The translations under genes were made by a program, and so were the position numbers. From NCBI GenBank assembly GCA_040905385.1, contig JBBDRP010000002.1, forward strand, positions 679,010-743,009: a DNA stretch of 64,000 bases, written 5' to 3'. Source of the DNA: Minisyncoccota bacterium. GTDB lineage: Bacteria; Patescibacteriota; Minisyncoccia; Phycocordibacterales; SW-6-46-9. This document shows positions 1 through 31,944 of this stretch, in pieces. The notes under the pieces are model-generated. The model saw nothing but the letters and a program-made list of their open reading frames with translations. It made no database searches and had not been told where the DNA came from. Position 1 is the stretch's first letter. Each line of letters opens with the position of its first letter.

Positions 1-40
1 GTAGAATTGATGGAATATTTTTCATTGCCCAAGTTCTGAA

Positions 41-814
41 TTATTTCCAGATTTCTGCTTCTAAGTCACTAAAACAATCAGCTGGTGCAACTGGTGATCT
101 TGTCGATTTTGGCAACTTATCGGAAAAATCAGAGTAAATTTCTTCAACTTCTTCTTTACTAAATTCCAATTTTTCTATAATCTTTTTTATTCTATCTATG
201 ACACCAGGGGCTAGAAAAGCGAACTCTGAATCGAATGGTTTGTTAAATTCTGGGTCGGAGACTATGTTACCATTCTCATCAGTCATCATGTTTGTTGCTC
301 CATTCAGGTCAAGATAACAAACACCAAGATATATACGTAGCGCCTCTTTGAGTTTTTGTTCTTTTCTCAAAATCTCGGCCATTTGAAATCTTGTATTTCT
401 GTATAAACCCCACTGTCCGCTCTTTGCATGATTAAGAAGATCCTCGTTAAGTAATCCCCATTGAACATCGTGATCAGAAGGTTCTTTGTCGCTAAGATTT
501 TTTCGCAATGTTTCTTTCCTGTCTTCAAATCTCTTTTGCTCCTCAAGATACGCTTCTTGTGTTCCGTTCTCAATCCGCCATTGCTCGTCAATTTTTTCTG
601 CTTCATCTTTTGTAACAACTAGGCGTACATTATCTGGCGTTGTGCGGACAAGCATAAATTCTCCGCAATGCGGACATTTTGTTTTTGCTCCTGGCACCTT
701 TTTGAGAGCTTCGTGACAATTCGGACATTCAGCTTTTCGTTCGTCTTTTGGCTCTTGTAATACTTCCACTCTTTGAGTTGGTTTATTGCTTTTTATAAAG
801 TCAAAAATACCCAT
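41..814 (-). CDS. hypothetical protein with N-terminal C4 zinc ribbon (CPNC...CPHC)
   Basis: 257-aa ORF with two CxxC pairs near the N-terminus. Last gene of the minus-strand cluster that begins with the SMODS/SLATT pair. No recognisable enzymatic motif. Confidence 0.45.
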   Translation of the reverse strand: MGIFDFIKSNKPTQRVEVLQEPKDERKAECPNCHEALKKVPGAKTKCPHCGEFMLVRTTPDNVRLVVTKDEAEKIDEQWRIENGTQEAYLEEQKRFEDRKETLRKNLSDKEPSDHDVQWGLLNEDLLNHAKSGQWGLYRNTRFQMAEILRKEQKLKEALRIYLGVCYLDLNGATNMMTDENGNIVSDPEFNKPFDSEFAFLAPGVIDRIKKIIEKLEFSKEEVEEIYSDFSDKLPKSTRSPVAPADCFSDLEAEIWK

Positions 815-821
815 ATGCTAT

Positions 822-1556
822 TTAATTCTGTAAAGCGGAGTGCATCCAATAACTATCAGCAATATCAGGTAAATTGTCAGTCAAGAAATTATCCCAATTT
901 ATTTTTTCCCAAGTTTTCCGCTCAATCGTTATTAGTGCAACTCTGCTGAGTAATTCTTCACCATACTGATCAACCAGTGTTAAATGTGATTCAACAACTA
1001 TCGCGTTGACATCTTGACCCACGATGGAAGACAATTCTTTCACTAAGTCTTTAGCATCACTTAAAATCCCTCTACGAGTGAGATTCGTCGTTAAGTTTTC
1101 TTTGGCAATGTAATCAATCCAAAGCTCTCCGTCACTAGTTTCGATTCCTCTAATTTCTACATCATGTCCAAGTGCCCGCAGTATTCCAAGTTCAATATTT
1201 CGTTCCGGCGTTTCTGCCTGCGTTAGATAGTTATAAGTTTGAGATGTTCCGGAAAGTATCCCATCCCTTTCGCTTCTAAATTCTTTATCACTTTGTATAG
1301 CGGGCAAAAATATAGATCCAAATATTAAAACGACGAGCACGACAAACGTTGCTGGAACGAATTTCTGCATTTCGGGCTTTTTCTCAAGCATTTTTATTGT
1401 ACCGATAGTCCCTATCAGAGCAAGAATGAAGCCCGTTAAAAAATTTAAGACAATCCAAAAGAGAATGAGCAAAACAAAAAACATTCCCCCGGCAACTTTT
1501 TGCTTTTTCTCCTTTGTCTTTTTATCGTCTATGGCTGATTGATTTTCTTCATTCAT
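822..1556 (-). CDS. hypothetical membrane protein (two TM helices followed by a soluble C-terminal domain)
   Basis: 244-aa ORF with a Lys-rich N-terminus, two hydrophobic helices and a roughly 150-aa C-terminal domain. It sits 8 nt upstream of the zinc-ribbon ORF, so the two are probably co-transcribed. Confidence 0.45.
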   Translation of the reverse strand: MNEENQSAIDDKKTKEKKQKVAGGMFFVLLILFWIVLNFLTGFILALIGTIGTIKMLEKKPEMQKFVPATFVVLVVLIFGSIFLPAIQSDKEFRSERDGILSGTSQTYNYLTQAETPERNIELGILRALGHDVEIRGIETSDGELWIDYIAKENLTTNLTRRGILSDAKDLVKELSSIVGQDVNAIVVESHLTLVDQYGEELLSRVALITIERKTWEKINWDNFLTDNLPDIADSYWMHSALQN

Positions 1557-1714
1557 ATTTTGTTTGTTACTTAATAAAATAGTTCATTCACTCTCTCTTA
1601 ACTAGATTGTATATGTCTTCATTGCTCTCGTACACCCGCAGTCGGCCAGTCATGATGCCCAAGTGATACAACACACCCTCACTCATCAACCGCCAGTTCA
1701 TATCTTTCTGTATA

Positions 1715-2170
1715 TTATCCTAATTTTTCTTTCGCTTTTTCGTACGCCCAATCGGTAGTTGGTGGGGTCAGACGCACTAGTTGTTCGTATTCTTCAGATA
1801 CCTTTTCAGCTTTCTTCAAGAGATCATTCTCAGAGTAACTTGATGATAATGATTTCAATCGTGATGCCTTATTCTTTATAACTGTAAAGTTTTTAGCTGC
1901 ATTTAAATTCTCGTAGTAAGATTTATTTGGATTTATGACAATACTAGTTGCTACTATCACAGAAGATATAAGTGCGAGCAGTCCTGACCATGGCTCTATA
2001 AAACCTTGGATGAAAGCTGCGCTTGATAAGGATGCAATCACAGCCGGAAACAGTTCGGTAAATCGTGAGATCATTTTACTTCGTGTAGCAATAATATGAT
2101 GAGATTCTGCAGTGTATCTGGCGTTATCTGTTATTTTTTCAAATGTTTTTATAATGTTTTCTTTACTCAT
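1715..2170 (-). CDS. SLATT-like 2-TM effector protein (partner of the SMODS nucleotidyltransferase)
   Basis: 151 aa with an N-terminal helix (NARYTAESHHIIATRSKMISRF), two adjacent TM helices and a charged C-terminal helical tail. It lies 9 nt downstream of the SMODS gene on the same strand. Confidence 0.5.
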   Translation of the reverse strand: MSKENIIKTFEKITDNARYTAESHHIIATRSKMISRFTELFPAVIASLSSAAFIQGFIEPWSGLLALISSVIVATSIVINPNKSYYENLNAAKNFTVIKNKASRLKSLSSSYSENDLLKKAEKVSEEYEQLVRLTPPTTDWAYEKAKEKLG

Positions 2171-2181
2171 TTTATTATTGA

Positions 2182-3519
2182 TTATCTTTTAATTGGTACT
2201 AATATGCGATCGATGGCTACACATTCTTCATTTACGATGATATAGCACTCTACGTAATGTTCACCATGGTATTTCGTATTCTCAATCCTTTCTTCTTTAC
2301 CCTTATCATGAGATATTTCACCTCGTAAATCTTTTGCTCTCTGTGCCTCACTTCCATAGTTGCGAACTTTCCACATTACTCGATAAGAGTCTGGGACATC
2401 AATATCTGTAATCTTGAAGGTTAACCTCTTCTTTTTTTCAAGAGGAACCCCTTTGTCAATGAACCAGCTCAGAGGATTTTTTCGAAAACTTTTCTGTTCA
2501 ATATCAGCATCTATGGATACTGTGTATCTGGAGGATGTGTCTATGGGTATACCATAGTCTTCAGTTATATCTTGATCACCATATGATGGATACTGCTCAT
2601 TTAGCTGAGCGATGTTTGTTTCTGACGCGTATTTTGCAAATTTATTGTGTGATGTAGGGAAATCCATACCGAAAATCTTTCTCCATTCTTTAGACGCTTC
2701 TTCAAGATTTCCTTCTGATTCATGATTAAGGGCTTTTTCCGAGCGTTTTTTAGCAGTTTGAGTACGAGAGACCCAGTCTTCACCTAAGTTAATGAATTGT
2801 GATGAGGCAGGTGAATATAAATTCGAGTTTCGCTTCATTACTAAGTAGTCAAAAAAGCCAGCGATCAAGTGGGGGAATTTCGGATTTTCATTCTCTGCAA
2901 AAGGTAGATTAAGAAAATTAACCGCGAGAAGCTCTACTTGGTAGGAAGGTAATGGTACGTTTGAATTTTCGACCCATTTCTTAAGAATTTTTACAAAATC
3001 TAACGTGAGCGAGTTTTGCTCTTCTGACTGCTCTAAATTTATGACTTCCATATTAGGGTTCCAAATCTCCCAGAAACCTCCGTTTTCTGTATTTGGAATC
3101 TTAAAAGCTCCTGAGGAAAGTTTCCATGCTGGTAGAAGCTCTACCGAATGGGAACTTTCTGCAAAGTTTATAACAATAACTTTTCCAAAGGCGGTTATAT
3201 GTTCGGTTGTTGAAAATCTTTCATTCAATATTTCGCGGATTTCTTGCAATAATTTTGATTGCCGATTTCCCTGCCCGGCATCAAAACGACCAAATTCTTC
3301 ATCAGGCATTATGAAAAGTAAATCTATATCTTTCGGTGGCCGTATGTTTGTATCTTTTCTGTATGACCCCACTACTTCTTTCGTGCTTCCATCATAGTCA
3401 CTTTCGTAATACTTATCATGCACAGCACCACACACACTTTTAATTTTCGTCGAAGCATCTTCTTTTTGGCGTTCTGTGAGCTCTATATTACTTAAGAGTT
3501 GTAAGAAATTCTCATTCAT
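2182..3519 (-). CDS. SMODS / CD-NTase-like nucleotidyltransferase with a C-terminal extension
   Basis: 445 aa. Pol-beta type motif GSYRKDTNIRPPKDIDLLFIMP (G-S ... D-x-D), with a further acidic residue in the downstream ...VELLP... segment. The roughly 200-aa C-terminal region has no recognisable motifs. Confidence 0.6.
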   Translation of the reverse strand: MNENFLQLLSNIELTERQKEDASTKIKSVCGAVHDKYYESDYDGSTKEVVGSYRKDTNIRPPKDIDLLFIMPDEEFGRFDAGQGNRQSKLLQEIREILNERFSTTEHITAFGKVIVINFAESSHSVELLPAWKLSSGAFKIPNTENGGFWEIWNPNMEVINLEQSEEQNSLTLDFVKILKKWVENSNVPLPSYQVELLAVNFLNLPFAENENPKFPHLIAGFFDYLVMKRNSNLYSPASSQFINLGEDWVSRTQTAKKRSEKALNHESEGNLEEASKEWRKIFGMDFPTSHNKFAKYASETNIAQLNEQYPSYGDQDITEDYGIPIDTSSRYTVSIDADIEQKSFRKNPLSWFIDKGVPLEKKKRLTFKITDIDVPDSYRVMWKVRNYGSEAQRAKDLRGEISHDKGKEERIENTKYHGEHYVECYIIVNEECVAIDRILVPIKR

Positions 3520-3527
3520 ACAGCGTG

Positions 3528-3770
3528 TTAGTGTTTAGCATCCTTAGGTGGGTACGGATCATTTCCAGGTGGTACAGTGTCACTATCTCGAATGGGGCCT
3601 TTCGAGCTGTGGATACGAACCTCACCACCACCACTGCTTGCTGAATAGTCTTTAGCGATTTTTTCAGCTTCTTTTTGGGTATCGGCATAGCCGCTTACTT
3701 TGCTGGCACCCTCTTTTTTAATGCGCCACTTCTTTTTATCTTTATCTTGACTTATGTGGTAATTGGCCAT
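3528..3770 (-). CDS. DUF2188 family protein
   Basis: 80 aa. The pattern HI..D..KW.IKKEGASK...ADTQKEAEKIA...A...GGGEVRIH...G.IRDSDT..PGNDPYPPKD matches the DUF2188 signature. Confidence 0.7.
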   Translation of the reverse strand: MANYHISQDKDKKKWRIKKEGASKVSGYADTQKEAEKIAKDYSASSGGGEVRIHSSKGPIRDSDTVPPGNDPYPPKDAKH

Positions 3771-3772
3771 AG

Positions 3773-4408
3773 TTAGTTATCTAGATTAGGAAGTGTGGTT
3801 ACATACACACCTTGAATACGAAAATCCTCAGAGAGAATGATCGGGTGGTATTTATCTGGTTTGGTTGTTTCTGGTTTAAGCACCACTGACCCATCTTTCT
3901 TTTTCAGTCGTTTAAGAGTAGCCTCGTCGTCAATAAGAGCAACAACTATTTCTCCTTCATCTGCAGTGTCACGCTGCTCAATAAGAACGAGATCTCCATC
4001 ATTAATACCTGCCCTATTCATAGAATCTCCTTCAGCACGAAGAATGAAATAGTCGCTGCCAGGTGACGCAACTTGTGTATCTAGAGACACGTAAGATTTT
4101 ATGTTCTCATCGGCAAGCAGCGGTTCTCCACAAGCAACCCGTCCCACAATTGGTATTTCTACTGTGTAAGTATTCTCTTTTTCAGCTGCTGATCTTTTTA
4201 GCAACCTTAGTTTATTTCTAGATACACGCTCAAGAAACCCTTTCTCGATTAAAGAGTTTGTCAGGCGAGCCCCTGTTCTCGGAGAGCTATGACCAACCTC
4301 TTCTGCTATCTCTTTAACAGTAGGAGTAGCCTCTTTGTGTACTAAGGAATTGCGGATAAAGCGAAAAGCAACTTTTTCTTTTTCTGTAAGTGGCTGTATA
4401 TTGCTCAT
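3773..4408 (-). CDS. lexA: LexA-like repressor (winged HTH + S24 peptidase, Ser/Lys dyad)
   Basis: 211 aa. LexA-type DNA-binding N-terminus (TPTVKEIAEEVGHSSPRTGARLTNSLIEKGFLER), an autocleavage-region-like VGRVACGEP, a catalytic Ser in GDSMNRAGI and a Lys in ATLKRLKKK. Confidence 0.75.
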   Translation of the reverse strand: MSNIQPLTEKEKVAFRFIRNSLVHKEATPTVKEIAEEVGHSSPRTGARLTNSLIEKGFLERVSRNKLRLLKRSAAEKENTYTVEIPIVGRVACGEPLLADENIKSYVSLDTQVASPGSDYFILRAEGDSMNRAGINDGDLVLIEQRDTADEGEIVVALIDDEATLKRLKKKDGSVVLKPETTKPDKYHPIILSEDFRIQGVYVTTLPNLDN

Positions 4409-4689
4409 GTAAATAACAGTATATTAAATATTTACCTTAAAATCAAGTGGAGTGAGTCCCTCTATTGGATTTACCGTTCCAAAGCTAGTAATATAAGTAT
4501 AGACAACTTATGCCTAAACCACTGGTGTGTGGCATGGCGCAATACATGAAATCCATCCAAGGTACAAAGCTCCTCGTCAGGAGCACCTTGGATGGTTGTC
4601 GGCGGAAACGTCGGCAGATGGGCCTCGCCCATCAACTGGCGGGGAGCTTTCTGCATCTCCGCTCATTACAAAACTAACCAAAACCATCT

Positions 4690-5520
4690 ATGGAAACAGA
4701 GAAGACTCAGCACAAACCAAATTCTAAATGGAGCTGGATCATTGGAATAATCCTTGTTATTGCAGGTCTTGACATGTTAAGCGACTCGTTAGCGCTAGGT
4801 ATAACCTATCTTTTGGCAGGAACGATAATCATGCCTCCTGTCTCTAAGATGATCTCAGAAAAGACAGGGATTTTTATGTCCAACAAAATAAAAATTATTT
4901 CTGTAGTTGTATTATTTGCAATCGGAGGACTTGTAGGATTGTCCGCTAAAATGGACTCTGACCAAGCAACCACTCAACAGGTCAATCAGCAAGAAAATAC
5001 GGAAGCAGCAGTTGAAGCACAGGAGAAAGTAGATTACGAATTATTAACTGATGGCCCATACGTGCCAAACGGTCATAGGTATTCTGTGCTACTACCCGAA
5101 AATTCATCTCAGTCTGACGTGAGGTCTGTAGCACAAAAAATAGTTTCAGAAGATAACAGTGGTAGTGACGAAATAACGATCTTCTTCTGGGATGATAAGC
5201 GTCAGTATGAATTAGGTACTAGTTACAATGTAGCTGAAGCAGAATGGTCTGGAGGTGAAATATCCTATCAGTGGGTAGAAAATAACAAAGACTCAAGCTT
5301 AAAGCCAACTAGTCATGAACTTGAAATATACGATTACTACTGGGAAGTATTTGATGAGCCAGGTAATCCACGAGGATATGTATCTCACCCAACAACAGAC
5401 GAACAGGCTAATGCATGGGAGCTTCAAAGAATAGAAAGAATTACTGCTGAGTATGATATCTCTACAGACCGTCTCTTTGAAATAGTGAGAAAGACTCTGA
5501 CTTGGCAGTTTTCTCAATAG
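4690..5520 (+). CDS. membrane-anchored hypothetical protein (two N-terminal TM helices, extracytoplasmic domain)
   Basis: 276-aa ORF divergent from lexA. Two hydrophobic helices are followed by a Q/E/T-rich linker and a roughly 180-aa domain. Confidence 0.5.
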   Translation: METEKTQHKPNSKWSWIIGIILVIAGLDMLSDSLALGITYLLAGTIIMPPVSKMISEKTGIFMSNKIKIISVVVLFAIGGLVGLSAKMDSDQATTQQVNQQENTEAAVEAQEKVDYELLTDGPYVPNGHRYSVLLPENSSQSDVRSVAQKIVSEDNSGSDEITIFFWDDKRQYELGTSYNVAEAEWSGGEISYQWVENNKDSSLKPTSHELEIYDYYWEVFDEPGNPRGYVSHPTTDEQANAWELQRIERITAEYDISTDRLFEIVRKTLTWQFSQ

Positions 5521-5831
5521 AGTGTTGTAAGGTTTCCAAAATATATAAAGTATTGTGTAGTTGCATACTTTTCAATGTCTGTTAGTATAGATATGTGTTC
5601 GAAACGAACACTAAAGCACATTAAACAATTACTGAATTAGATTACATGTCCCACGCGCGGGCTCATCATGGCACAAAAACCGACGCAATGGTCATATAAT
5701 CAAAGATTTCAGTCAAACGGCGTATTCGCTTGGGTCATCATGCCAGAATAGCCATACGTGCGAACTGTGAATCAAGAAACTAACAAAACCCTTCTGGGGT
5801 GTTAGTGTTTTGGTTTACAGCTTGTACTACT

Positions 5832-5864
5832 AAAGCACCACCTCAGACAGGTGGTGCTTTTTTG
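5832..5864 (+). terminator. rho-independent terminator hairpin (aaagcaccacc-loop-ggtggtgcttt + T tract)
   Basis: A perfect 11-bp stem followed by TTTTTT, lying just upstream of the ParB-methyltransferase gene. Confidence 0.6.
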
Positions 5865-5890
5865 ATTATTTACCACTCACAAAATTAACT

Positions 5891-7162
5891 ATGGAAAAAC
5901 TAAACTGGCGCACAGAAAAACGAATTGTAGACGACCTTGTGCCGTACGAGCCTAACCCCCGGCAAATATCTGAGACTCAACTTGAGAAACTTAAAGATAG
6001 TCTGGAAAAATTCAACTTAGTAGAAATACCAGCAATTGATGCCGACAATACCATCATTGCTGGTCACCAACGACTGAAGGTCATGCAGCTACTTGATCGT
6101 GGCGATGAAGAAATTGAAGTTCGTGTACCGAACCGAAAGCTCACCCACGAGGAGTTTGAGCAGTATCTTCTTACTAGTAACCGCTCCGGCGGCGACTGGG
6201 ACTTTGATCTCCTTAAGGAATTCGATATTGAATTACTCTTAGAGGTTGGCTTTGACGCCACTGATCTATCCCATATCTGGGATGACATCCTCAGTATTGA
6301 AGACGATCAGTTTGATGAGGATAAAGCTCTTGAAAAAGCAAGTGAAACAAACATTGAACTCGGAGATGTCTTTGCTCTAGGTAAGCACCGGCTGATATGT
6401 GGCGATGCGACCGACAAAGAGACCGTCCAGAAACTTGTCGGTAGTACAAAGATTGATTTGGTAAACACTGATCCGGTGTACAACATCAACTTAGACTACA
6501 ACGCCGGCCTTGGTGGCGAAAGCTCATACGGCGGAACAACTAACGACAACAAAAGTCAGGGTGAGTACGAGAGCTTTCTGAACAACCTAATTACGAACGC
6601 ACTTTCTGTCACGAACGAAGATGCTCACATCTTCTTCTGGTGTGACGAAAAGTATATCGGACTACTACAGAATCTGTATGCAAGACATGAGATCAGTCAC
6701 AAGCGAAATTGTCTATGGATCAAAGGACCGCACAACCCCACCCCGAAGGTTGCCTTCAACAAATGCACAGAGTACTGCATCTACGGCACCGTCGGAAAAC
6801 CGTATCTCTCTGAACGGATTAAAAACTTGACCGAACTACAGAATAAGAACGTCGACAGCGGCAACCGCCTTATCGATGACGTGCTTGATCTTCTGAATAT
6901 CTGGCTAGTGAAGCGAGTCAACACCAGTGACTACGAACATCCAACCACCAAGCCACCAGCACTATATGAGAAATCACTACGACGCTGCTCAAAGCCCGGA
7001 GATAAAATTCTTGATCTCTGTGGTGGTTCTGGCAGTAGCTTAATTGCAGCTGAACAACTAAATCGAATGGCGTATCTAGTCGAGATAGAGCCGGTATTTT
7101 GTCAGGTAATCATCAATCGGTATGAAAAACTCACCGGAGAAAAAGCAGAAAAAATTAATTAG
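5891..7162 (+). CDS. ParB-like nuclease domain fused to DNA methyltransferase (N6-adenine/N4-cytosine type)
   Basis: 423 aa. N-terminal ParB/Srx motif (NPRQISE...LVEIPAI...GHQRL). The C-terminal half carries TDPVYN (a DPPY variant), HPTTKPP and CGGSGSS. The C-terminal half is paralogous to the next ORF. Confidence 0.75.
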   Translation: MEKLNWRTEKRIVDDLVPYEPNPRQISETQLEKLKDSLEKFNLVEIPAIDADNTIIAGHQRLKVMQLLDRGDEEIEVRVPNRKLTHEEFEQYLLTSNRSGGDWDFDLLKEFDIELLLEVGFDATDLSHIWDDILSIEDDQFDEDKALEKASETNIELGDVFALGKHRLICGDATDKETVQKLVGSTKIDLVNTDPVYNINLDYNAGLGGESSYGGTTNDNKSQGEYESFLNNLITNALSVTNEDAHIFFWCDEKYIGLLQNLYARHEISHKRNCLWIKGPHNPTPKVAFNKCTEYCIYGTVGKPYLSERIKNLTELQNKNVDSGNRLIDDVLDLLNIWLVKRVNTSDYEHPTTKPPALYEKSLRRCSKPGDKILDLCGGSGSSLIAAEQLNRMAYLVEIEPVFCQVIINRYEKLTGEKAEKIN

Positions 7163-7895
7163 GACTGGAGATGTTATTGAACTAGGTGACCACCGACTTG
7201 TTTGCGGTGATGCCACCGACAAAGATGTAATGGAAAAGCTTGCTAAAGATTTGACCATCGACTGCCTGTTAACCGACCCGCCCTACGGCGTCTCATATAC
7301 CGAAAGCAAAAAAGACTTTGCCAAGCTCTCCAATGACACAGCTATTGCCAACGATGATCTGGATGATGAAGCTGGTTACCAAAAATTCACAGCTGCCTGG
7401 CTGGAAGCCCTGCTCCCCCATTTGTCTAAAAAGAACAGCCTGTACATCTTCAACTCAGACAAAATGATATTTGCTCTACGCGAAGCCATGGTTGGAATGA
7501 ATATTCACTTTGCTCAACTACTTATCTGGACAAAGACACACTCAATCATTGGTCGGCTGGATTACCTTCCACAACATGAGCTGATCGCCTACGGCTGGTA
7601 CGGCACACACCAGTTTGAGAAAAGTAAGGACAAAAGCGTACTTATTCACCCAAAACCAAATAAAAGCAAACTCCACCCCACAATGAAGCCGGTGGGGCTA
7701 CTGCGACGCCTAGTTCTCAACAGCACGAAAGTTGGAGATGTGGTTTGCGATCTGTTTGGTGGATCAGGATCAACATTAATTGCCTGCGAACAGACTAAAC
7801 GAAAGTGTCTGATGGTTGAATCTGATCCCGAATACTGCCAAACAACTATAAACCGTTTTGAGAAACTTACCGGTAGTAAAGCAACCATCCTATGA
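7122..7895 (+). CDS. DNA methyltransferase (DPPY motif, N6A/N4C class)
   Basis: 257 aa. Motifs HRLVCGDATD, TDPPYGV, HPTMKPVGL and FGGSGSTLIA. It overlaps the 3' end of the previous gene by 41 nt. Confidence 0.8.
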   Translation: MKNSPEKKQKKLIRTGDVIELGDHRLVCGDATDKDVMEKLAKDLTIDCLLTDPPYGVSYTESKKDFAKLSNDTAIANDDLDDEAGYQKFTAAWLEALLPHLSKKNSLYIFNSDKMIFALREAMVGMNIHFAQLLIWTKTHSIIGRLDYLPQHELIAYGWYGTHQFEKSKDKSVLIHPKPNKSKLHPTMKPVGLLRRLVLNSTKVGDVVCDLFGGSGSTLIACEQTKRKCLMVESDPEYCQTTINRFEKLTGSKATIL

Positions 7896-8308
7896 GCAAA
7901 GAAAAAACAATTGAAAAACGGCAAGAGATCCGAAAGAAACTCATTGTTGAGCAGTTAGAAAAAACGCCAATTGTTGAAACATCCTGCCAAAAGGTCGGGA
8001 TCGGGCGCTCCACCTACTACCGCTGGCGTAAGGAGGATTCGGAGTTTGCCAAGCGAGCAGACAAGGCCCTCTTTATTGGTAAATTACTTGTCAATGACAT
8101 GGCTGAGTCACAACTGATGAGCCTGGTAAAAGAAAAGAATCTATCAGCGGTAAAGTTCTGGCTTCGCAACAACCACCCACAGTACGCTCGCAAGCTAAAC
8201 ATTAACGCCCATCTTAAACACGAGCGTAAAGAACTGACTGACGAGCAAAAAGAGATTGTTCGCAAAGCATTAACATTAGCAAAACTTAACTCACCTGATC
8301 ATGACTAA
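7892..8308 (+). CDS. phage terminase small subunit (HTH-containing)
   Basis: 138 aa. HTH GIGRSTYYRWRKEDSEF typical of TerS proteins. Overlaps both the methyltransferase and terL by 4-8 nt. Confidence 0.65.
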   Translation: MSKEKTIEKRQEIRKKLIVEQLEKTPIVETSCQKVGIGRSTYYRWRKEDSEFAKRADKALFIGKLLVNDMAESQLMSLVKEKNLSAVKFWLRNNHPQYARKLNINAHLKHERKELTDEQKEIVRKALTLAKLNSPDHD

Positions 8309-9848
8309 AAACAACATTCAAATCGATAAAAAGATCATTGAAGAACTAATCAACGACCGTGATTCCCGTATTGAAGCAACTAAGCAGTCACATCTCTTAT
8401 TCTTTCACACCTATTTTGCTCATTACGTTGAATACGAAACGGCAAGATTCCAAAAGGAGATGTTTGCAATGACGGAGAAAGAGCAAGGTCTTGATGTGAT
8501 CATTGCCTTTCGAGACTCAGGAAAGTCCTCAATTGTCACTACATCTTATCCACTATGGGCAATTCTTGGCAAACAAGAAAAGAAGTTTGTTTTGATTTTG
8601 AGCCAGACTCAAAACAAGGCTCGTCAGCACTTAAAGAACATGAAACGTGAATTAGAAAATAATCAGCTACTACGCGATGATCTTGGTCCGTTTCAAGAGG
8701 AATCAGACGAGTGGGGTGTTCACGCTCTAACCATACCTAGGTTTAATGCCAAAATAATGATCGGATCTGTAGATCAAAGTATTCGTGGTATTCGACACCT
8801 TCAATATCGCCCTGACTGCATCATTCTTGACGATATTGAGGATACTCAATCCGTAAAAACTAAGGATGGCCGAGACAAAACTTGGAATTGGTTTACTGGT
8901 GAAATCATTCCAGCAACAGATCGTGGAGCGCATCTAATAGCTGTTGGAAACCTATTACACCGTGATTCACTTCTTAAGCGTATAGAAGCCTCGATTACCT
9001 CAGGAGACACGAAAGGTACATATAAAGAATTTCCGATTATAGACGGCAAAAAGAAGCCTTTGTGGCCAGATAAGTATCCAAACGAAGCAGCAATTACAGC
9101 TGAGCGAGAACGGGTAATGGATAGGGTTTCCTGGCATCGTGAGTATCTTCTGGAGATCCTTCCAGATGAAGATCAGGTCATCTTACCTGAATGGATTCAC
9201 TATTATGATGAACTTCCAGACACACGCCAAAAATTCATTGCCATTGGCATTGATCCAGCTATCAGCCAAAAGGACACGGCTGATTACACAGCTATGATTA
9301 CAGTCAAAGTATACGGACGGAGTGATAATATGCGCATTTATGTTCTGCCCAACATAATCAACAAACGACTTACGCATCTAGAAACAATTGATACGGCTGT
9401 GAGTATATATGAGTCAGTCAGGGGTCAATCAAGGCCAACAATTTACATCGAAGATGTAGCCTACCAAAAATCCTTGGTTGAACAAATTGACCAAAAACGT
9501 TATATCACTGTAAAGGGAGTAAAGGTTGGAGGCCAGGATAAATGGGCTCGACTTACGAGTGTCAGTCATATCTTCCAGAATGGACAGATACTATTTCCTA
9601 AAACAGAAATATCTGACCGCTTGGTGAATCAACTCTTAGGATTTGGGGTGGAAAAACATGATGATCTTGTCGATGCCTTAACTTTAGTGGTTCATCAAAT
9701 AATGGAAAAAGATCGGGGTGGATATGGTCGCGCATACAAGCGAGTGCGCCGTAACAGTCCGGAAGTCGGTCATCTTAATAGCAGAGAGCGTCATATGCTA
9801 TTTGGTGGCAATGATTGGGCTTCAGTAGACATTCAAAAATTACAGTAG
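8301..9848 (+). CDS. phage terminase large subunit
   Basis: 515 aa. Walker A-like AFRDSGKSS, Walker B-like CIILDDIED, and a C-terminal nuclease-like region with conserved acidic residues. Confidence 0.7.
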   Translation: MTKNNIQIDKKIIEELINDRDSRIEATKQSHLLFFHTYFAHYVEYETARFQKEMFAMTEKEQGLDVIIAFRDSGKSSIVTTSYPLWAILGKQEKKFVLILSQTQNKARQHLKNMKRELENNQLLRDDLGPFQEESDEWGVHALTIPRFNAKIMIGSVDQSIRGIRHLQYRPDCIILDDIEDTQSVKTKDGRDKTWNWFTGEIIPATDRGAHLIAVGNLLHRDSLLKRIEASITSGDTKGTYKEFPIIDGKKKPLWPDKYPNEAAITAERERVMDRVSWHREYLLEILPDEDQVILPEWIHYYDELPDTRQKFIAIGIDPAISQKDTADYTAMITVKVYGRSDNMRIYVLPNIINKRLTHLETIDTAVSIYESVRGQSRPTIYIEDVAYQKSLVEQIDQKRYITVKGVKVGGQDKWARLTSVSHIFQNGQILFPKTEISDRLVNQLLGFGVEKHDDLVDALTLVVHQIMEKDRGGYGRAYKRVRRNSPEVGHLNSRERHMLFGGNDWASVDIQKLQ

Positions 9849-9900
9849 CCTACTCTCTTTAGGTCTGGATAACCTCAACCAGTCCGGCACTGTGTAGGTA

Positions 9901-11196
9901 ATGACCGACAACCATCCAAGTAGTGCTTCTGACGAGGTTAAATACGTCCTCTATGCCCGTAAATCAACCGAAAGTGATGAACAACAGGCACTTTCAATAG
10001 ATGCACAGGTCAAGGAAATGAAGCGGCTAGCAGAGAAAAAAGACCTCAATATAACAGAAGTGATGACAGAAGCACACTCTGCTAAAGCAGTCGGGCAACG
10101 ACCGGTCTTCAACAAGATGATTGAAAAAATTAAAACCAGTGAATTCACTGGGGTACTCACCTGGGCACCAGATAGACTCTCTAGAAATGCTGGAGATCTT
10201 GGTGCCCTTGTTGATCTTATGGATCAAGATGTACTCAAGGTTGTCCAAACACACGGACAACGCTTTAGTGATGCTCCATCGGAGAAGTTCTTACTAATGA
10301 TAATGGGATCACAGGCCAAACTTGAAAATGATCAGAAAAGTAAAAATGTGAAGCGTGGACTACGGGCCAGATGTGAGCAAGGGCTGTGGCCTGCACCCGC
10401 ACCGACTGGGTACTTAAAACACAGAGACAGGAAAAAGAAATGCCATGTAGTGGTTGATCCTAAGCGAGCACCAACCATAAGAGATATCTTTCGAAAAGTT
10501 GCGTACGAAAATATGTCCGGAAGAGATGTGTATAGATGGCTGAAAAAGGATGCTGACTTTAAAACTAAAAATGGAAAGCATCTTACACAATCTAATATCT
10601 ATCTTATCCTTAAAAATACCTTCTACTATGGAAAATTTGAGTATCCGACCGGTAGCGATAATTGGTATGACGGAGTACATGAACCTATCATATCTAAAGA
10701 ACTGTACGAAAAAGTACAGTTATCTATACGAGCAAATACTCAGTACAAACCGAGCTCAAAAGAATTCGCCTTCACAAAGCTCATGAAGTGCGGAGAGTGT
10801 GGATCTGGAATTACCGTTCAAGAGAAAATAAAGAAATTGAAAGATGGTAGTGAAAGAAATTATGTCTACTACAACTGCACAAGAAGTAGAAATACCTACT
10901 GTGATGCCGAGTACATACGTGAGGTTGATCTGATTGAGCAACTTAAGGATCTAATAGATGAAATTAATATTAACGAACTAGGAGTACAAGAAAGTCTTCG
11001 GAATGAATTAGAGAGATTTAATTCATTCCGTGGATTAATTGGCGAAGATAAAAAAGATACAAAGATAGAGAACGTTGGAATTAAAGAGTATGCAAAATAT
11101 ATATTAAACAATGGAAGTTTAGTAGAAAAAAGACAGGTGTTATCTAATCTTAAAGGTAATATTATCTTAAAAAATGGAAAATTATTATATGAATAG
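9901..11196 (+). CDS. large serine recombinase / integrase
   Basis: 431 aa. Resolvase-type N-terminus (YARKSTESDEQQALSIDAQ ... LTWAPDRLSRN), a recombinase domain, and a Cys cluster (CGECGSG...YYNCTRSR...C) forming a zinc ribbon. Confidence 0.85.
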   Translation: MTDNHPSSASDEVKYVLYARKSTESDEQQALSIDAQVKEMKRLAEKKDLNITEVMTEAHSAKAVGQRPVFNKMIEKIKTSEFTGVLTWAPDRLSRNAGDLGALVDLMDQDVLKVVQTHGQRFSDAPSEKFLLMIMGSQAKLENDQKSKNVKRGLRARCEQGLWPAPAPTGYLKHRDRKKKCHVVVDPKRAPTIRDIFRKVAYENMSGRDVYRWLKKDADFKTKNGKHLTQSNIYLILKNTFYYGKFEYPTGSDNWYDGVHEPIISKELYEKVQLSIRANTQYKPSSKEFAFTKLMKCGECGSGITVQEKIKKLKDGSERNYVYYNCTRSRNTYCDAEYIREVDLIEQLKDLIDEININELGVQESLRNELERFNSFRGLIGEDKKDTKIENVGIKEYAKYILNNGSLVEKRQVLSNLKGNIILKNGKLLYE

Positions 11197-11263
11197 AAGA
11201 TTACTTCATTACAGAAATAGCTATGATAACATTGAGCTATTATAAATAGTATGGAAATTATCT

Positions 11264-11452
11264 ATGGAGGGATTTCTTAATGTTGTAAGAGCTGTTATTT
11301 TAACCTTTACATCTGCTGGAGGTCTTTATTTATTGTTATACATTACCATTCAGCTAGCCGGTAGAGACGATGGTGAGTTTGGCTTAGCTGTTACTGTTCC
11401 AACATCTTTAGTATTACTATTGATTTCTTATTTACTACTTCAGACTTTTTAG
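11264..11452 (+). CDS. small hydrophobic (2-TM) protein, hypothetical
   Basis: 62 aa, almost entirely hydrophobic. Could be spurious. Confidence 0.3.
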   Translation: MEGFLNVVRAVILTFTSAGGLYLLLYITIQLAGRDDGEFGLAVTVPTSLVLLLISYLLLQTF

Positions 11453-11670
11453 CTGCTAATTTCCATATTTTACTTTTGTTTTCTTAAATAAAATGATTTA
11501 TTTAAGAAAAATTATTATAAATTTTCATGATCATTTCTTACATCAGCCCATTTATCCTCAAACTGCTCGTTCACATCTACAGTATAAAATGGCATTCCGA
11601 CTAGATGGTAATCTTTGTTTTCGTAAAATGTCTTTAAATCATGCTCTTGCTAAAATTATTGACTTCATAT

Positions 11671-12126
11671 TTATTTTATTAGTATAGTTACTAATAAAGA
11701 GGCTAATGAAATTAGAAAAGCCAATGCCGATAAAAATAGACTAATTGGATTTTCCCAAGCTTTATGTAATAAGTATTGCAGTTTTTTTCCGCCCTTAGTA
11801 GTTAAAATAATTCTCTCTGAATCATTATTGAAATGACCCGCAAGAGATGAATATCCATGCACTTTTTGGGTATCTATTATTACTAATCCGTCATTTTGCA
11901 TTTTTTGCAACTCTCTACGAATGTGAGATTCTGAAATTTCTTCTTTATCATTTTTAATATTTTTATTTATTTCATCATAAATGACTCGAAAATTAGGATG
12001 CTCAGGGTAAAACTCAACCTCATTTGAAACATCATATCCTCCCAGTTCTTGTATATCCATATATTTAAAATTAGATTCTTGTTCAAATTGCTCCAGTATT
12101 TTTTTCAATCTATTGCGTAAATTCAT
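11671..12126 (-). CDS. hypothetical protein with C-terminal TM anchor
   Basis: 151-aa ORF in the AT-rich part of the island. Confidence 0.4.
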   Translation of the reverse strand: MNLRNRLKKILEQFEQESNFKYMDIQELGGYDVSNEVEFYPEHPNFRVIYDEINKNIKNDKEEISESHIRRELQKMQNDGLVIIDTQKVHGYSSLAGHFNNDSERIILTTKGGKKLQYLLHKAWENPISLFLSALAFLISLASLLVTILIK

Positions 12127-12195
12127 GTTTACCTATTCATAAAATTATTCACTTCTTTATTCTTCTTCGATAATCATTAATATTCACACTCTCAG

Positions 12196-13227
12196 CTAAT
12201 CGGCTTTTAATGACTTAATCAAATCAAGGGATAGTGAACTAGCTGCATATACGCCATCTATCTTCTGAAGATAGTCACGAGATTTATAAATCTCGTCAGC
12301 TACAAATAAATATACTCCATGATTCCTGATAGCTTCTGCGATATTTTGGCGTAGATCCAGTCCTAAAGTTATTTCAATCATCACATCCAAATCAGTCATT
12401 TGTGCTGTCTTAATAAACTGTTTATATCTTTCACGTAAAGTTCTTTTTGCGCCTATTCCTACAGTGACACCATCTGCATTAAAGAAGAAATCAAATTCTG
12501 TTGAACTATCATCTTCATCATGTTTCTTTTCAATGCTGTCAGCATCAATACCCATTTCAACAAGTATTTGAAAAATACGCTCTTCGTAACTTGAACCCGC
12601 TGTAGAAATAATTGATTGATTTACGCTCTCTGAAAACATCAGCATAAACATTTGATTAGGTTCAACTCCAGATTGCTTTAGTTCTTCAAAATCCTCCTTT
12701 AGATTATTCACATAATCCTCAGCACCTTGACTCAAGAAATTACTGTTACTTTCTTCAAGTTTCCTGAAAAATAATAGAGAAAGAAGGGCTCCATTCACTC
12801 GCATATAATATGGTTCATTCTTACTTTTTTTATCGTACTCTAATGAGAGTAAATGATGTTCAGATCTTTCCTCTTTAACTTCCTCTATCGATATTTTTGC
12901 CTCTTCTAGTAATAATGGTTTTACTTTTAATAACTTTAGCGCAAAGGAGAATATCTTGTAATCTTCAGAAGATTCAATCAAATATAAAGTACTCATCATA
13001 TTATCCATTTTTTCAGGACTTTTGATCTTTTCTTCAAAAATATTTTTTATTAAATCGTGACCTTTTTCGTATTCAGTAGCAGGATGACGGTTTGTAATTT
13101 CTAATACCTTGTTTAACTGATTCTCAGTTAAACCCAATCCTCCATTTATTTCCTTAAGAAAAACATAAAGCTTCAGGTTAGAGTCCAGTTTCTGTTTTTC
13201 TATTTCGATTTTATTATCTATGTTCAT
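12196..13227 (-). CDS. putative type II restriction endonuclease (partner of the m5C methyltransferase)
   Basis: 343-aa ORF 4 nt downstream of the C5-methyltransferase on the same strand. No clear motif was recognised, so the assignment rests on position only. Confidence 0.4.
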   Translation of the reverse strand: MNIDNKIEIEKQKLDSNLKLYVFLKEINGGLGLTENQLNKVLEITNRHPATEYEKGHDLIKNIFEEKIKSPEKMDNMMSTLYLIESSEDYKIFSFALKLLKVKPLLLEEAKISIEEVKEERSEHHLLSLEYDKKSKNEPYYMRVNGALLSLLFFRKLEESNSNFLSQGAEDYVNNLKEDFEELKQSGVEPNQMFMLMFSESVNQSIISTAGSSYEERIFQILVEMGIDADSIEKKHDEDDSSTEFDFFFNADGVTVGIGAKRTLRERYKQFIKTAQMTDLDVMIEITLGLDLRQNIAEAIRNHGVYLFVADEIYKSRDYLQKIDGVYAASSLSLDLIKSLKAD

Positions 13228-13230
13228 AAT

Positions 13231-14280
13231 TTATTCTTTTAGAGCCTCTTCTAATTCTATCTCTTCAATATTAATCTTGTTACCTTTACGAGGATTCATT
13301 TTTTTATGAGCTTTTACAACCTCTGCAGCTATAGCCTCAATAACAGGAATTGCAACACTGTTTCCAAACTGCTTATAAGCCTGTGTATCACTAACTGGTA
13401 TTTGAAAATTTTCTGGATAACCCTGCAGTCGAGCAGCTTCTCTTGGTGTTATCTTCCTAGGGTTCTTATCCTCCTGCTTAATCAGAATCTCAGAACCATC
13501 TTTGTAATACCGAGCAGACATTGTGCTTGTGTACTCGGAATCTTCATCAAACATAGAATAACCAAACCCCCAACCCTTTGCTTCATTCTCTTTTTTTCTA
13601 CGCTTATGACCAGACCAGAGCTTTTCAGATATTGTATATTTTTCTGGAACCTTATTTTCAAGAATTTGTCCGACTCTAGTTTCGTGCTTTGGTGGCTCAG
13701 GAAATGAAAAATCTGTCTCTCCAAGAAAAGCAATAATGTATATTCTTTCACGATTTTGAGGTACTCCAAAATGTTTAGCATTTAATACTCTAGCATGTAC
13801 TTCATATCCTAATTTTTCAAGAATAAATTTAACAATTTTAAATGTTCTTCCTTTATCGTGATTTTTAAATCCTTTAACATTTTCCAAGAAAAGAACTGAA
13901 GGATGATGATGATTTACAATTCTTGCAATATCAAAAAACAATGTACCTCTATCATCTTCAAATCCCTTCTTAAGACCAGCATGAGAAAACGGCTGACAGG
14001 GAAATCCAGCAAGCAGATAATCAAATTCTGGAATTTCCTCTTCATGGATTTCAGTGATATCACCATGCGGTATTTCATCAAAATTTTCCTTGTAAGTTTC
14101 TTGCGCAAACTTATCAAATTCAGATGAAAAAACACATTTACCATTATGTACCTCAAATCCTAGCCTGATACCGCCTATACCCGCAAATAAGTCGATGAAA
14201 GTAAAATCTGCATCTCTATTTTTAGTCCTATTATCAAAAAGTCGATTTAATTTAATTTTTTCTTTTACGTCATTACTCAT
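13231..14280 (-). CDS. dcm: DNA (cytosine-5)-methyltransferase
   Basis: 349 aa. Motif I FAGIGG, motif IV PCQPFS, ENV, QNRERIYIIAF, and a C-terminal FGNSVAIPV. Confidence 0.9.
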   Translation of the reverse strand: MSNDVKEKIKLNRLFDNRTKNRDADFTFIDLFAGIGGIRLGFEVHNGKCVFSSEFDKFAQETYKENFDEIPHGDITEIHEEEIPEFDYLLAGFPCQPFSHAGLKKGFEDDRGTLFFDIARIVNHHHPSVLFLENVKGFKNHDKGRTFKIVKFILEKLGYEVHARVLNAKHFGVPQNRERIYIIAFLGETDFSFPEPPKHETRVGQILENKVPEKYTISEKLWSGHKRRKKENEAKGWGFGYSMFDEDSEYTSTMSARYYKDGSEILIKQEDKNPRKITPREAARLQGYPENFQIPVSDTQAYKQFGNSVAIPVIEAIAAEVVKAHKKMNPRKGNKINIEEIELEEALKE

Positions 14281-14342
14281 TTTTTTGATTAATTTAAATT
14301 ATAAGAATACATACAATATTTATTTCTTACTTTATTTTACCA

Positions 14343-14780
14343 TCAGTTCTCACAAACATTACCTTGATTTAACTCACGGATATTGTGCATACATGGCTCC
14401 CCATCAGCCAATCCAAGAGCTGTGAGATGAACAAAGAATGATTTCCAGCCATTACCGCTGCTGCTACCGGCGAATTCGCCGGCGATGAACTTCTCTCCTT
14501 TCCATGTGTTACCGCTACTATCATAGTAAATGATAAGCTCGCCTTTATCGCCAAATTTGTTCTCGTACTGCATAAAGTACTCTGTATCGCCCTTTTTGGT
14601 TGGGCGACTACTCTTTGGCCGATACGGGGCATACCCCATAACTTTTTTACCAGCTTTAATCTTCCATTTGGCGAATAAAACCGTGTGCGGAAAGTTGTAA
14701 AGCACGGAATCTTCGTCATCAGAAAGGTGCTTAGGAATAAACGCGAACAAAGTACCATCAGCTTGATTGTTTCTTTTCAT
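14343..14780 (-). CDS. hypothetical protein
   Basis: 146 aa when started at MKRNNQ. The longer ORF in the track would read through an upstream GC-rich hairpin. Confidence 0.4.
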   Translation of the reverse strand: MKRNNQADGTLFAFIPKHLSDDEDSVLYNFPHTVLFAKWKIKAGKKVMGYAPYRPKSSRPTKKGDTEYFMQYENKFGDKGELIIYYDSSGNTWKGEKFIAGEFAGSSSGNGWKSFFVHLTALGLADGEPCMHNIRELNQGNVCEN

Positions 14781-15008
14781 AGGTTGTAAAGATAAAGGCG
14801 TCTCCCGCCGGAGACGCCTGAGTTTATAATCATCTCTCCTTGCGGATGGAATTAGCACCTTACTTTCGCAGGTTGCCGGTGGGTCACAGGGCCAGATCCC
14901 TCACCACACTCACGATAATTATTCAGTTGTGTTTACATAGTAACATCAACTCACGCCAGAAAGAAAGATTGGGATTAGCTTCGTTTATTACAATTTTTGT
15001 CCTCTTGA

Positions 15009-15575
15009 TTAATTATGTACATTCAAATCATTATTTAAATATTTATTCATCACCTTGTAACCACTATCTTTATCACTAACATGTGCCTTTATAACAAAAT
15101 TAAGTTTTTCTAGATTATCGGAATGGCTATTTATTTCTTCCGTTGATATTCCAATAAATCCTTTATCCCAGTCTAAGGCATTTCTTTTATTTTTTCGACT
15201 TGCTTTTACCAAGTTTAAAATTTTTGTTTCTCCAACTTCAGTCTTTTCTGATTTCATATTTATCCACCATTCAGAATGAATAATCTCGTTACGATATTCC
15301 ATTTCATCATAAATTAATGAATATATTTCTTTAAATTTATTAGCGTGTTTTTTCCCCAACCTTTCAGTAATAAGCTCTTGTAACAAATCAAGCTTATCTT
15401 TAAATGTAAGTTTTGTAGTTATGCGATGACATACTGACTGATGATCTGGTGTGTTACCAAATAAATAGAGGCAAATTAGATCTCCGATAGCATACTCAAC
15501 CTTATTGAAGAAAACTACAAATCTTCCAATAGATTCATATATTTGTTCTTGCTCTGTTTTCTCGTCATCACTCAT
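15009..15575 (-). CDS. hypothetical protein
   Basis: 188-aa ORF in an AT-rich segment. Confidence 0.45.
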   Translation of the reverse strand: MSDDEKTEQEQIYESIGRFVVFFNKVEYAIGDLICLYLFGNTPDHQSVCHRITTKLTFKDKLDLLQELITERLGKKHANKFKEIYSLIYDEMEYRNEIIHSEWWINMKSEKTEVGETKILNLVKASRKNKRNALDWDKGFIGISTEEINSHSDNLEKLNFVIKAHVSDKDSGYKVMNKYLNNDLNVHN

Positions 15576-15668
15576 TACGTGGCTATTTTAGTATCTCTAT
15601 CTTACCATCCAGACTACCTGAAACGAAGAGAGGTGGTGTGTAAGTAACCCACTACTCTAACCACCCTG

Positions 15669-15744
15669 TCTTGCAAGACGTATGCTAACGCTGCAAAACT
15701 AGAAGTATTAAGTACTGCTTATTCAAATCTTGTTACAGACCGCT
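15669..15744. repeat. direct repeat copy 1 (~76-80 bp, core tcttgcaagacgtatgctaacgctgcaaaactagaagt)
   Basis: About 90% identical to the copy at 17070-17147, with a 38-nt exact core. Confidence 0.85.
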
Positions 15745-15990
15745 CTTCAAGATTCCTTCTGGCGATACAAGTCCTCTTTCCACGTCCTGTTGTATTTTCT
15801 CCAGATATTCTCCTAGCGTAGCTCGTGTTAGATCTATCTCCGCCCTCTTGTATATCTGATAAAACTTGTCTACTGCCATCGCCTCCTCTTCAGACACGTT
15901 CAACCGGTCCGCTATTGCTTTTTCTTCGGTAAGCCACGGTAGTTCCACCATCTTCTTGTTCAAATGTTGTTTGTAGTTTTCTTTACTCAT
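15733..15990 (-). CDS. hypothetical protein
   Basis: About 86 aa from MSKENYKQ. Its 3' end overlaps repeat copy 1. Confidence 0.4.
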   Translation of the reverse strand: MSKENYKQHLNKKMVELPWLTEEKAIADRLNVSEEEAMAVDKFYQIYKRAEIDLTRATLGEYLEKIQQDVERGLVSPEGILKSGL

Positions 15991-16051
15991 AACTATATTA
16001 TTACCTTTTAACTCTCTGAAACTTAGCAAGCAACCGTAAGCCCTCTCTATA

Positions 16052-16459
16052 CTATATTTTAATTACTTCATTGACAGCTTCCTTTAAAGTTATTTTGAAA
16101 GCATTCATGTTACGAAAATCTTTCTGGACAACATGTGCAACACCTTCCCGTAATGCGTTTTCATTCCATTCCGGATTAGAAGAAATTGAAATCATTTTAT
16201 CAACGCCAAACTTTTTAAAATCAATGATGTGAAATGACTTACCATCAATACAATCACGGTCTAGAAGAACGAGATCGAAAGTGTCTGATATTAACTTATT
16301 AACAACACCTTCTACATGCAAATAGCTAGAAAACTGCATTGTTTTAAATTCTATATCCCTCTCTTCTGCAAGCTCATCCAAAGCACTGTAAATGACTGAA
16401 AGCGTTAAAGTGTCATCTTCCAGAATGAGAATATTGAGTTTATTTAATTTATTCATCAA
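16052..16459 (-). CDS. stand-alone response-regulator receiver (CheY-like) domain protein
   Basis: 135 aa. ILILEDD (acidic pocket), LVLLDRD (phospho-acceptor Asp) and a conserved K near the C-terminus. No output domain. Confidence 0.7.
   Translation of the reverse strand: MMNKLNKLNILILEDDTLTLSVIYSALDELAEERDIEFKTMQFSSYLHVEGVVNKLISDTFDLVLLDRDCIDGKSFHIIDFKKFGVDKMISISSNPEWNENALREGVAHVVQKDFRNMNAFKITLKEAVNEVIKI

Positions 16460-30304: not shown

Positions 30305-31944
<1,640 letters not shown>

Follow-up and report, generated by a model that had tools for sequence, protein, structure and literature searches.

Around 40% of the operons of type I CBASS (an antiphage signaling system based on cyclic oligonucleotides) reportedly encode a CD-NTase cyclase fused to an AGS-C domain, and the EcCdnF04/F05-SLATT6 operons, which carry this fusion, are reported to defend E. 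coli against phages (10.1101/2023.05.21.541620). A table of antiphage systems on Lactococcus plasmids includes a type I CBASS in which an NTase/AGS-C cyclase is paired with a SLATT effector (pUCCL631_167/168; PMC11381338), and the defence repertoires of bacteria of the candidate phyla radiation (CPR) have been catalogued before (PMC12259885). The system described here, a cyclase gene followed by a SLATT-type effector gene, lies in a stretch of 64,000 nucleotides (nt) from a Candidatus Paceibacterota (CPR) genome (784-kb contig JBBDRP010000002.1), hereafter the window. The cyclase, a protein of 445 amino acids (aa), is encoded at 2182-3519 (-) and the effector, 151 aa long, at 1715-2170 (-), at the coordinates and on the strand reported by a first-pass annotation of this DNA; in NCBI the former is called "nucleotidyltransferase" and the latter "SLATT domain-containing protein".

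The pair is a type I CBASS of ordinary, already described architecture. The locus comprises (i) a cyclase whose GS...[DE]x[DE]...[DE] signature is intact, (ii) an adjacent effector gene located 11 nt downstream, and (iii) no ancillary genes, since searches with Pfam, PADLOC and NCBIfam among the neighbours at 41-16950 disclosed neither Cap2/Cap3 (E1-E2-JAB) nor HORMA/TRIP13 nor type IV genes, and the system is therefore assigned to type I. The profile matches, the intact catalytic residues and the adjacency of the genes bear out the minimal CBASS of SMODS/CD-NTase cyclase and SLATT membrane effector that had been proposed from the first reading. The further suggestion of an undescribed variant does not hold, as annotated copies of this pair exist on plasmids of Klebsiella and Arcobacter and the architecture has been tested experimentally. 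Full-length relatives, with 29-32% identity, occur on 90 plasmids, and in Klebsiella pKPN-80a (WP_040120126 and WP_004206608) and an Arcobacter plasmid the gene that follows bears the annotation of a SLATT domain protein. Compared to the CD-NTase-AGS-C and SLATT systems of E. coli, Lactococcus and Klebsiella, the window preserves the gene order, the SLATT_4-type effector with two transmembrane (TM) helices and the absence of ancillary Cap genes; it differs in (i) the host, a CPR (Paceibacterota) bacterium, (ii) the shorter SLATT protein (151 aa versus ~180-195 aa), and (iii) the placement of the pair on a small integrative element, within an operon headed by LexA. CPR hosts are difficult to cultivate.

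Viewed in this context, the pair is very likely an abortive-infection module, carried as end cargo of the integrative element and probably co-expressed with a LexA/CI-type repressor, as in the cI-rexAB arrangement of phage lambda. By homology, the CD-NTase core, with its GS...DxD...E residues, would link nucleoside triphosphates and close them into a cyclic oligonucleotide after sensing a phage cue, the recognition of which would be tuned by the fused Ig-like AGS-C domain. This signal would activate the two-TM SLATT protein, permeabilising the membrane and thereby killing or arresting the cell ahead of phage release. The element would express repressor and defence genes together, so that a quiescent element would protect its host, and the output of CBASS would follow the state of the repressor.

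The comparison relies on 103 related loci gathered from genomes, viral contigs and metagenomes, in which open reading frames (ORFs) were called and clustered. The non-redundant set comprises 85 loci, the window and 84 others; upstream regions were considered informative when at least 700 nt was available (65 loci) and downstream regions when at least 500 nt was available (75 loci). A scan of genome contigs with a single protein yielded four loci, and a phage collection yielded three partial matches.

The cyclase and its AGS-C domain

The 445-aa cyclase (2182-3519, -) comprises, on the reverse strand, (i) an NTase core of residues ~1-290 (nt 2650-3519), (ii) a short, low-confidence linker of residues 291-319 (nt 2563-2649), and (iii) a C-terminal AGS-C domain of residues 320-444 (nt 2188-2562). 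The SMODS profile of Pfam (PF18144) covers residues 2-162 with an E value of 7e-24, and the PADLOC cyclase model PDLC00796 covers the full length with an E value of 8.6e-108, in agreement with the SMODS nucleotidyltransferase assigned at first reading. The AlphaFold2 (AF2) model, built from 46 homologues with a predicted local distance difference test (pLDDT) score of 91.3, displays the expected CD-NTase fold: the predicted core is bilobed and Pol-beta-like, resembling solved CD-NTases, with CdnD and CdnB as the closest structures.

The catalytic residues comprise G51 and S52 (nt 3364-3369, -), D64 and D66 (nt 3322-3330, -), and E127 (nt 3139-3141, -). The first four are invariant across the 46 homologues, E127 is conserved in at least 90% of them, and D64 and D66 align with D62 and D64 of CdnD; the D-x-D pair, the integrity of which had been flagged for checking, is thus intact. 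The GS...DID active site originally read from the protein is present, with E127 as the third acidic residue, whereas its spacing had to be corrected from x9 to x11 (G51-S52-x11-D64-I65-D66).

The C-terminal extension, described in the first-pass annotation as devoid of any recognisable motif, is the AGS-C domain, already named and structurally solved. Pfam AGS_C (PF18134) matches residues 320-444 with an E value of 1.8e-39 and 135 bits, well over the curated threshold of 26.7, and the model shows an Ig-like β-sandwich, structurally nearest to the AGS-C domain of EcPycC (9ard). Nine positions of the domain are invariant among the 46 homologues, namely W383, N387, R399, G400, E413, H421, E424, C425 and C433. 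Within type I, AGS-C has been reported from clades B and H and from part of clades F and G, and is reported to be missing from A, C, D and E. By homology, the domain is likely a regulatory or cue-specificity part of the enzyme.

The protease-tripwire CD-NTases, which belong to clades A, G and part of D, carry a surface-exposed, disordered activation loop of ~30 residues in the core (PMC12991175); they share the enzyme superfamily with the window cyclase, and for both the trigger is presumably a late phage function. No such loop is visible in the core of the AF2 model, where pLDDT falls below 50 at residues 293-298 only, within the linker to AGS-C. The model therefore points to a mode of activation that probably differs from that of the tripwire enzymes, possibly operating, in the clade of the window cyclase, through AGS-C.

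The SLATT protein

The effector gene (1715-2170, -) is separated from the cyclase gene by 11 nt (2171-2181), rather than by the 9 nt counted at first. The 151-aa protein displays the layout of the SLATT family, with two adjacent TM helices, TM1 at residues 40-58 (nt 1997-2053, -) and TM2 at residues 61-79 (nt 1934-1990, -) by hydropathy, flanked by helical N- and C-terminal regions and encoded beside a SMODS gene. The NCBIfam profile SLATT_4 (NF033632) scores 66.2 bits against a cut-off of 55, in line with the two-TM SLATT identity originally proposed. PADLOC models of 2TM effectors match over the full length (2e-13), and a PADLOC model of SLATT proteins associated with reverse transcriptases (RT) matches with 3e-18. 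A solved SLATT structure was sought by sequence, and none was found. From these profiles, the protein reads as a SLATT_4 member overall, of a divergent short subtype.

The two-gene core is conserved. A SLATT-type gene stands directly downstream of the cyclase in 60 of the 75 loci with informative sequence, and 11 of those, non-redundant loci with orthologues of 44-51% identity placed immediately after the cyclase, carry the short subtype of the window.

Two further arrangements were observed among the relatives. At least 11 of them carry the cyclase-SLATT pair inside, or attached to, a type I restriction-modification (R-M) operon, with gaps of often just 4-15 nt, the pair being placed either between hsdS and hsdR (L045, L067, L073, L078, L088 and L102) or after hsdR (L005, L018, L025, L026 and L049). 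In L006 and L007, a remnant of the SLATT N-terminus, 32 residues long (L006 7355-7450), follows the cyclase and precedes oppositely oriented JAB and E2-CBASS genes, which looks like the loss or replacement of the effector, or a transition from type I to type II.

The probable LexA-headed operon

The conserved neighbour that the first-pass annotation missed is an upstream LexA-type repressor. The first gene of the operon (3773-4408, -) encodes a LexA/CI-type protein of 211 aa, which scores 158.5 bits with TIGR00498 (lexA) against a cut-off of 110.95 and contains the Pfam domains LexA_DNA_bind and Peptidase_S24. The protein combines a winged helix-turn-helix DNA-binding domain with an S24 domain that retains the Cys-Gly cleavage site (VAC-GEP), the GDSM serine and the lysine of the KR motif (LKRL), and self-cleavage by this Ser/Lys dyad is predicted. 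Between repressor and cyclase, a second gene (3528-3770, -) encodes a small DUF2188 protein of 80 aa (Pfam, 4e-16), which matches the PADLOC defence candidate PDC-S16 with an E value of 3e-18. Small ORFs of 64-93 aa occupy the same position in L014, L029, L033 and L052; none of them is related to DUF2188 or matches a Pfam profile.

The genes of the operon are tightly packed, with gaps of 2 nt between LexA and DUF2188, 8 nt between DUF2188 and cyclase, and 11 nt between cyclase and SLATT, and the CBASS pair therefore probably shares the LexA promoter. Within the region at 4409-4446 (-), a consensus scan, in which promoter-like sites were no more numerous than expected from shuffled sequence, located the promoter-like site TTGATT-17-TATACT (4446-4418). 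It ends 10 nt ahead of the LexA ATG, and a leaderless or near-leaderless transcript is therefore predicted. A 7-bp inverted repeat, GTAAATA (4435-4429) and TATTTAC (4415-4409), brackets the -10 hexamer and represents a weak operator candidate.

In 22 of the 65 informative loci, a LexA-type gene is situated upstream of the cyclase at a distance of 2.5 kb or less; it never lies downstream, and it occurs in two layouts. In layout (a), found in the window, L014, L029, L042, L062 and L097, and partially in L024, L031 and L075, the LexA gene, an optional small ORF, the cyclase and the SLATT gene run in the same direction, divergent from genes for an N6/N4 methylase, a small terminase (TerS), sometimes a large terminase (TerL), and a large serine integrase; the proteins of this methylase, TerS, TerL and integrase set in L014, L029, L042, L062 and L097 are 38-56% identical to those of the window. 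In layout (b), found in L033, L043, L050, L054, L056, L059, L060, L072 and L074, LexA precedes, or is fused to, a DNA methylase and diverges from cyclase-SLATT.

The LexA-methylase units themselves vary. LexA DNA-binding and S24 domains are fused to a DNA methyltransferase in a single ORF in L033 (4220-6397, -) and L056 (3-1730, -), the methyltransferases belonging to two different families, and in L043, L050, L054 and L059 the LexA gene stands immediately upstream of the methylase gene; fusions and gene pairs alike are always divergent from cyclase-SLATT. Beside the LexA-Dcm-CBASS locus of L043, a tRNA gene cluster contains a match to a group I intron (3592-3826, +; 74 bits).

Among the closest known systems in layout is the immunity operon of lambda, in which rexA and rexB, abortive-infection genes, follow cI. 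The window resembles it in that the gene of an S24 self-cleaving repressor precedes, probably within one transcription unit, two presumed abortive-infection genes, one of which encodes a membrane protein. The lambdoid viral contig L020 carries the CBASS pair exactly at the position of rexAB, with a CI-like S24 repressor followed by the SLATT and cyclase genes, opposite to CII-like and primase/helicase genes. Compared to lambda, the window pair has no sequence relation to RexAB, would act through a nucleotide second messenger, and resides on an element without capsid, tail or lysis genes.

The integrative element and the LOOT RNA

The integrative element extends from ~1587 to ~11200, roughly 9.6 kb, with the CBASS operon at its edge and the cyclase-SLATT pair as its last cargo. 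Divergent from the LexA operon, a LOOT RNA (Rfam RF03000) is located at 4511-4633 (+), with 65.4 bits in cmscan against a gathering score of 46.4. According to Pfam and PHROG matches, the rest of the element (4690-11196, +) comprises a membrane ORF (4690-5520), a ParB-like N6/N4 methylase (5891-7162), a second N6/N4 methylase (7122-7895), TerS (7892-8308), TerL (8301-9848) and the large serine integrase (9901-11196), all on the forward strand; capsid, tail, lysis and replication genes were not recognised by Pfam or PHROG between 1587 and 11200. The low-GC setting noted at first reading is confirmed, with a GC fraction of 0.37-0.40 over 1-4000 compared to ~0.45-0.55 across most of 17-64 kb, and with methylases, terminase and an R-M pair nearby.

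LOOT RNAs accompany eight related element loci (L008 2974-3097, L009 2026-2142, L014 2291-2420, L029 3200-3321, L034 2247-2376, L042 874-1001, L062 402-527 and L080 3941-4061), and none of the nine layout (b) loci, which lack integrase and terminase genes. The motif usually lies in a divergent promoter region, by the serine integrase or the methylase. A conserved mini-element of ~9-10 kb recurs in the relatives L014, L029, L042, L062, L080 and L097; it encodes a LexA-type repressor, one or two N6/N4 methylases, both terminase subunits (TerS and TerL) and a serine integrase, and capsid, tail, lysis and replication genes were not recognised in it. The mini-element may be a phage satellite, or what is left of a prophage and has been conserved in CPR bacteria.

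Other features of the window lie outside the element. Just past the integrase, a pair of genes encodes an EcoRII-C-like endonuclease and a Dcm methylase (12196-14280, -). A SAM riboswitch (14827-14921, -) overlaps the 5' end of a long GTG-start ORF (14343-14858), the true start of which is therefore probably further downstream. The 16S rRNA gene (30309-31944, -) measures 1636 nt, ~100 nt longer than the 1533-position bacterial model.

Weighing the explanations

Several points weigh against the reading as a repressor-linked, element-borne CBASS. At the level of the effector, Pfam SLATT_4 (PF18186) reaches 24.2 bits, just short of the gathering score of 27, and hhalign aligns the window subtype with the canonical SLATT_4 neighbours of 180-195 aa with a probability of 33%, over the C-terminal part only. 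Co-transcription from LexA through SLATT is probable as judged from gene spacing alone, and a terminator was not detected downstream of SLATT, where the 158-nt spacer also shows no significant fold (z 0.13) and no Rfam match at E values up to 0.1. The borders of the element are approximate, and no att-like repeats of at least 12 nt connect 1540-1760 with 11100-12200. Half of the LexA-positive loci have no integrase or terminase in the available sequence, and a mobile-element explanation leaves those uncovered. Finally, the product nucleotide, the trigger and the action of the effector are inferred by homology.

The strongest rival, an appreciable possibility that falls short of an even chance, holds that the LexA-type protein goes beyond an immunity repressor of the element and acts as a dedicated, DNA-damage-responsive regulator of CBASS, such that RecA-stimulated self-cleavage upon phage infection or DNA damage would de-repress cyclase and effector. 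Known CBASS regulators provide the model: the repressor genes of CapW/BrxR, CapH+CapP and CapK+CapS directly precede the CBASS operon or diverge from it (PMC9122588, PMC13373217), all three families respond to DNA damage (PMC13373217), and the cleavage-based switch of CapH+CapP is conceptually similar to that expected of the window repressor, which retains the cleavage-site and serine motifs. The consistently upstream location of the LexA-type gene described above (22 of 65 loci, never downstream) agrees with this role, as do ten loci of divergent, regulator-like organisation, in which a shared intergenic region of 64-163 nt contains palindromes and no integrase or terminase is in view; in the window, autoregulation of LexA would by construction control CBASS too. 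The window repressor nevertheless differs from the Cap regulators in being a single chain of LexA_DNA_bind and S24, without WYL domain, M78 partner or kinase/STAS pair, and Pfam and NCBIfam detected no WYL, M78 peptidase, GHKL kinase or STAS domain in 41-5520. In the literature searched, no paper linking LexA to CBASS or SMODS was found.

Against a dedicated regulator, about half of the LexA-positive loci have their repressor within a clear mobile-element or lambdoid immunity region, which by itself explains the adjacency. The divergence of LexA co-varies weakly with that of the cyclase (Spearman rho 0.20, permutation p ~0.013), and no shared LexA operator could be defined across the upstream regions of the related loci. 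Moreover, repressors of the CI type are often activators of their own promoter, and a response in the opposite direction would then be expected. The cI-rexAB arrangement and the dedicated regulator thus predict opposite outcomes of repressor cleavage.

A highly improbable alternative is that the pair serves the mobile element itself, either through a holin-like lesion triggered by a cyclic nucleotide and used for release, or as an addiction module. The coexistence of TerS and TerL with the lack of lysis, capsid and tail genes in 1587-11200 would fit such a role, and SLATT is, like many holins, a small two-TM protein. Nevertheless, the cyclase-SLATT pair is common outside such elements, in type I R-M operons and on plasmids, close architectural equivalents defend against phage experimentally, and nothing ties the pair to induction of the element.

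Still less credible is a four-gene system, in which a two-TM membrane protein of 244 aa (822-1556, -) and a zinc-ribbon protein of 257 aa (41-814, -), both taken from the ORF list, would be additional parts of a new CBASS variant, as the first-pass annotation had envisaged. The two genes are indeed co-oriented with cyclase and SLATT; a gap of 7 nt separates them from each other, and the 158-nt spacer between 822-1556 and the SLATT gene contains no terminator-like site. When the conservation of the block at 41-3519 was surveyed, only the cyclase-SLATT core was retained: no homologue of either of the other two proteins occurs among the remaining 84 non-redundant loci, and neither protein has a PADLOC match. 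The 244-aa protein is 88% identical to a copy in another Parcubacteria genome devoid of CBASS (L104 7001-9088), where a small helix-turn-helix (HTH) gene precedes it and an HNH (HNH_2) gene follows. Alignment by blastn to that genome gives 86% identity over window 846-1586 and stops at 1586/1587, between 822-1556 and the SLATT gene. This break in the homology to L104-L106 defines the left edge of the window-specific element (1587-1714, no strand), and both genes therefore lie outside the CBASS-bearing insertion. As window 1-43 matches the gene after the HNH gene in the Parcubacteria relative, the sequence comparison presents 41-814 as a swapped cassette between conserved flanks, with a zinc-ribbon gene here and HNH_2 in the relative. 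The zinc-ribbon family, for which there is no model in Pfam or PADLOC, counts 1432 representatives at E values up to 1e-3, far more broadly distributed than the cyclase clade. The four-gene idea was rejected on the neighbourhood survey and the homology break.

Least probable of all, a Pycsar-like cyclic mononucleotide system, suggested by the occurrence of AGS-C on PycC cyclases paired with TM effectors, by the structural proximity to the EcPycC domain and by a weak PADLOC PycC match at residues 352-430 only, was rejected by the domain and fold assignment, since the catalytic domain is SMODS/CD-NTase and not a PycC class III-type cyclase, and the PycC match is confined to AGS-C.

Implications

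As a CBASS locus, the pair adds little: the architecture occurs commonly, standard pipelines annotate it, and it has been tested in model bacteria. What value it has is modest and resides in the context, which shows that streamlined CPR bacteria gain immunity by abortive infection from small integrative elements that carry it as cargo, and that a CBASS clade is found repeatedly beside a LexA/CI-type repressor and a DNA methylase. Of remaining interest are the repeated linkage of LexA, methylase and CBASS and the mini-element with its LOOT RNA and terminase genes. With its highly conserved AGS-C residues and no tripwire loop, the clade also represents a reasonable choice for asking what AGS-C senses.

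The only potentially new point is the regulation of CBASS by the repressor upon DNA damage. It may be proposed, tentatively and with doubt prevailing, that a single-chain, self-cleaving LexA/CI-type repressor recurs as a controller functionally coupled to the AGS-C/SLATT type I CBASS clade and to an adjacent DNA methylase, as a fourth DNA-damage-linked "Cap" regulator, and that the CPR unit resides on a minimal, terminase-bearing, LOOT-RNA-carrying integrative element, maybe a phage satellite. Should the repressor gate CBASS, the finding would extend an emerging rule of DNA-damage-responsive transcriptional control over suicide immunity.

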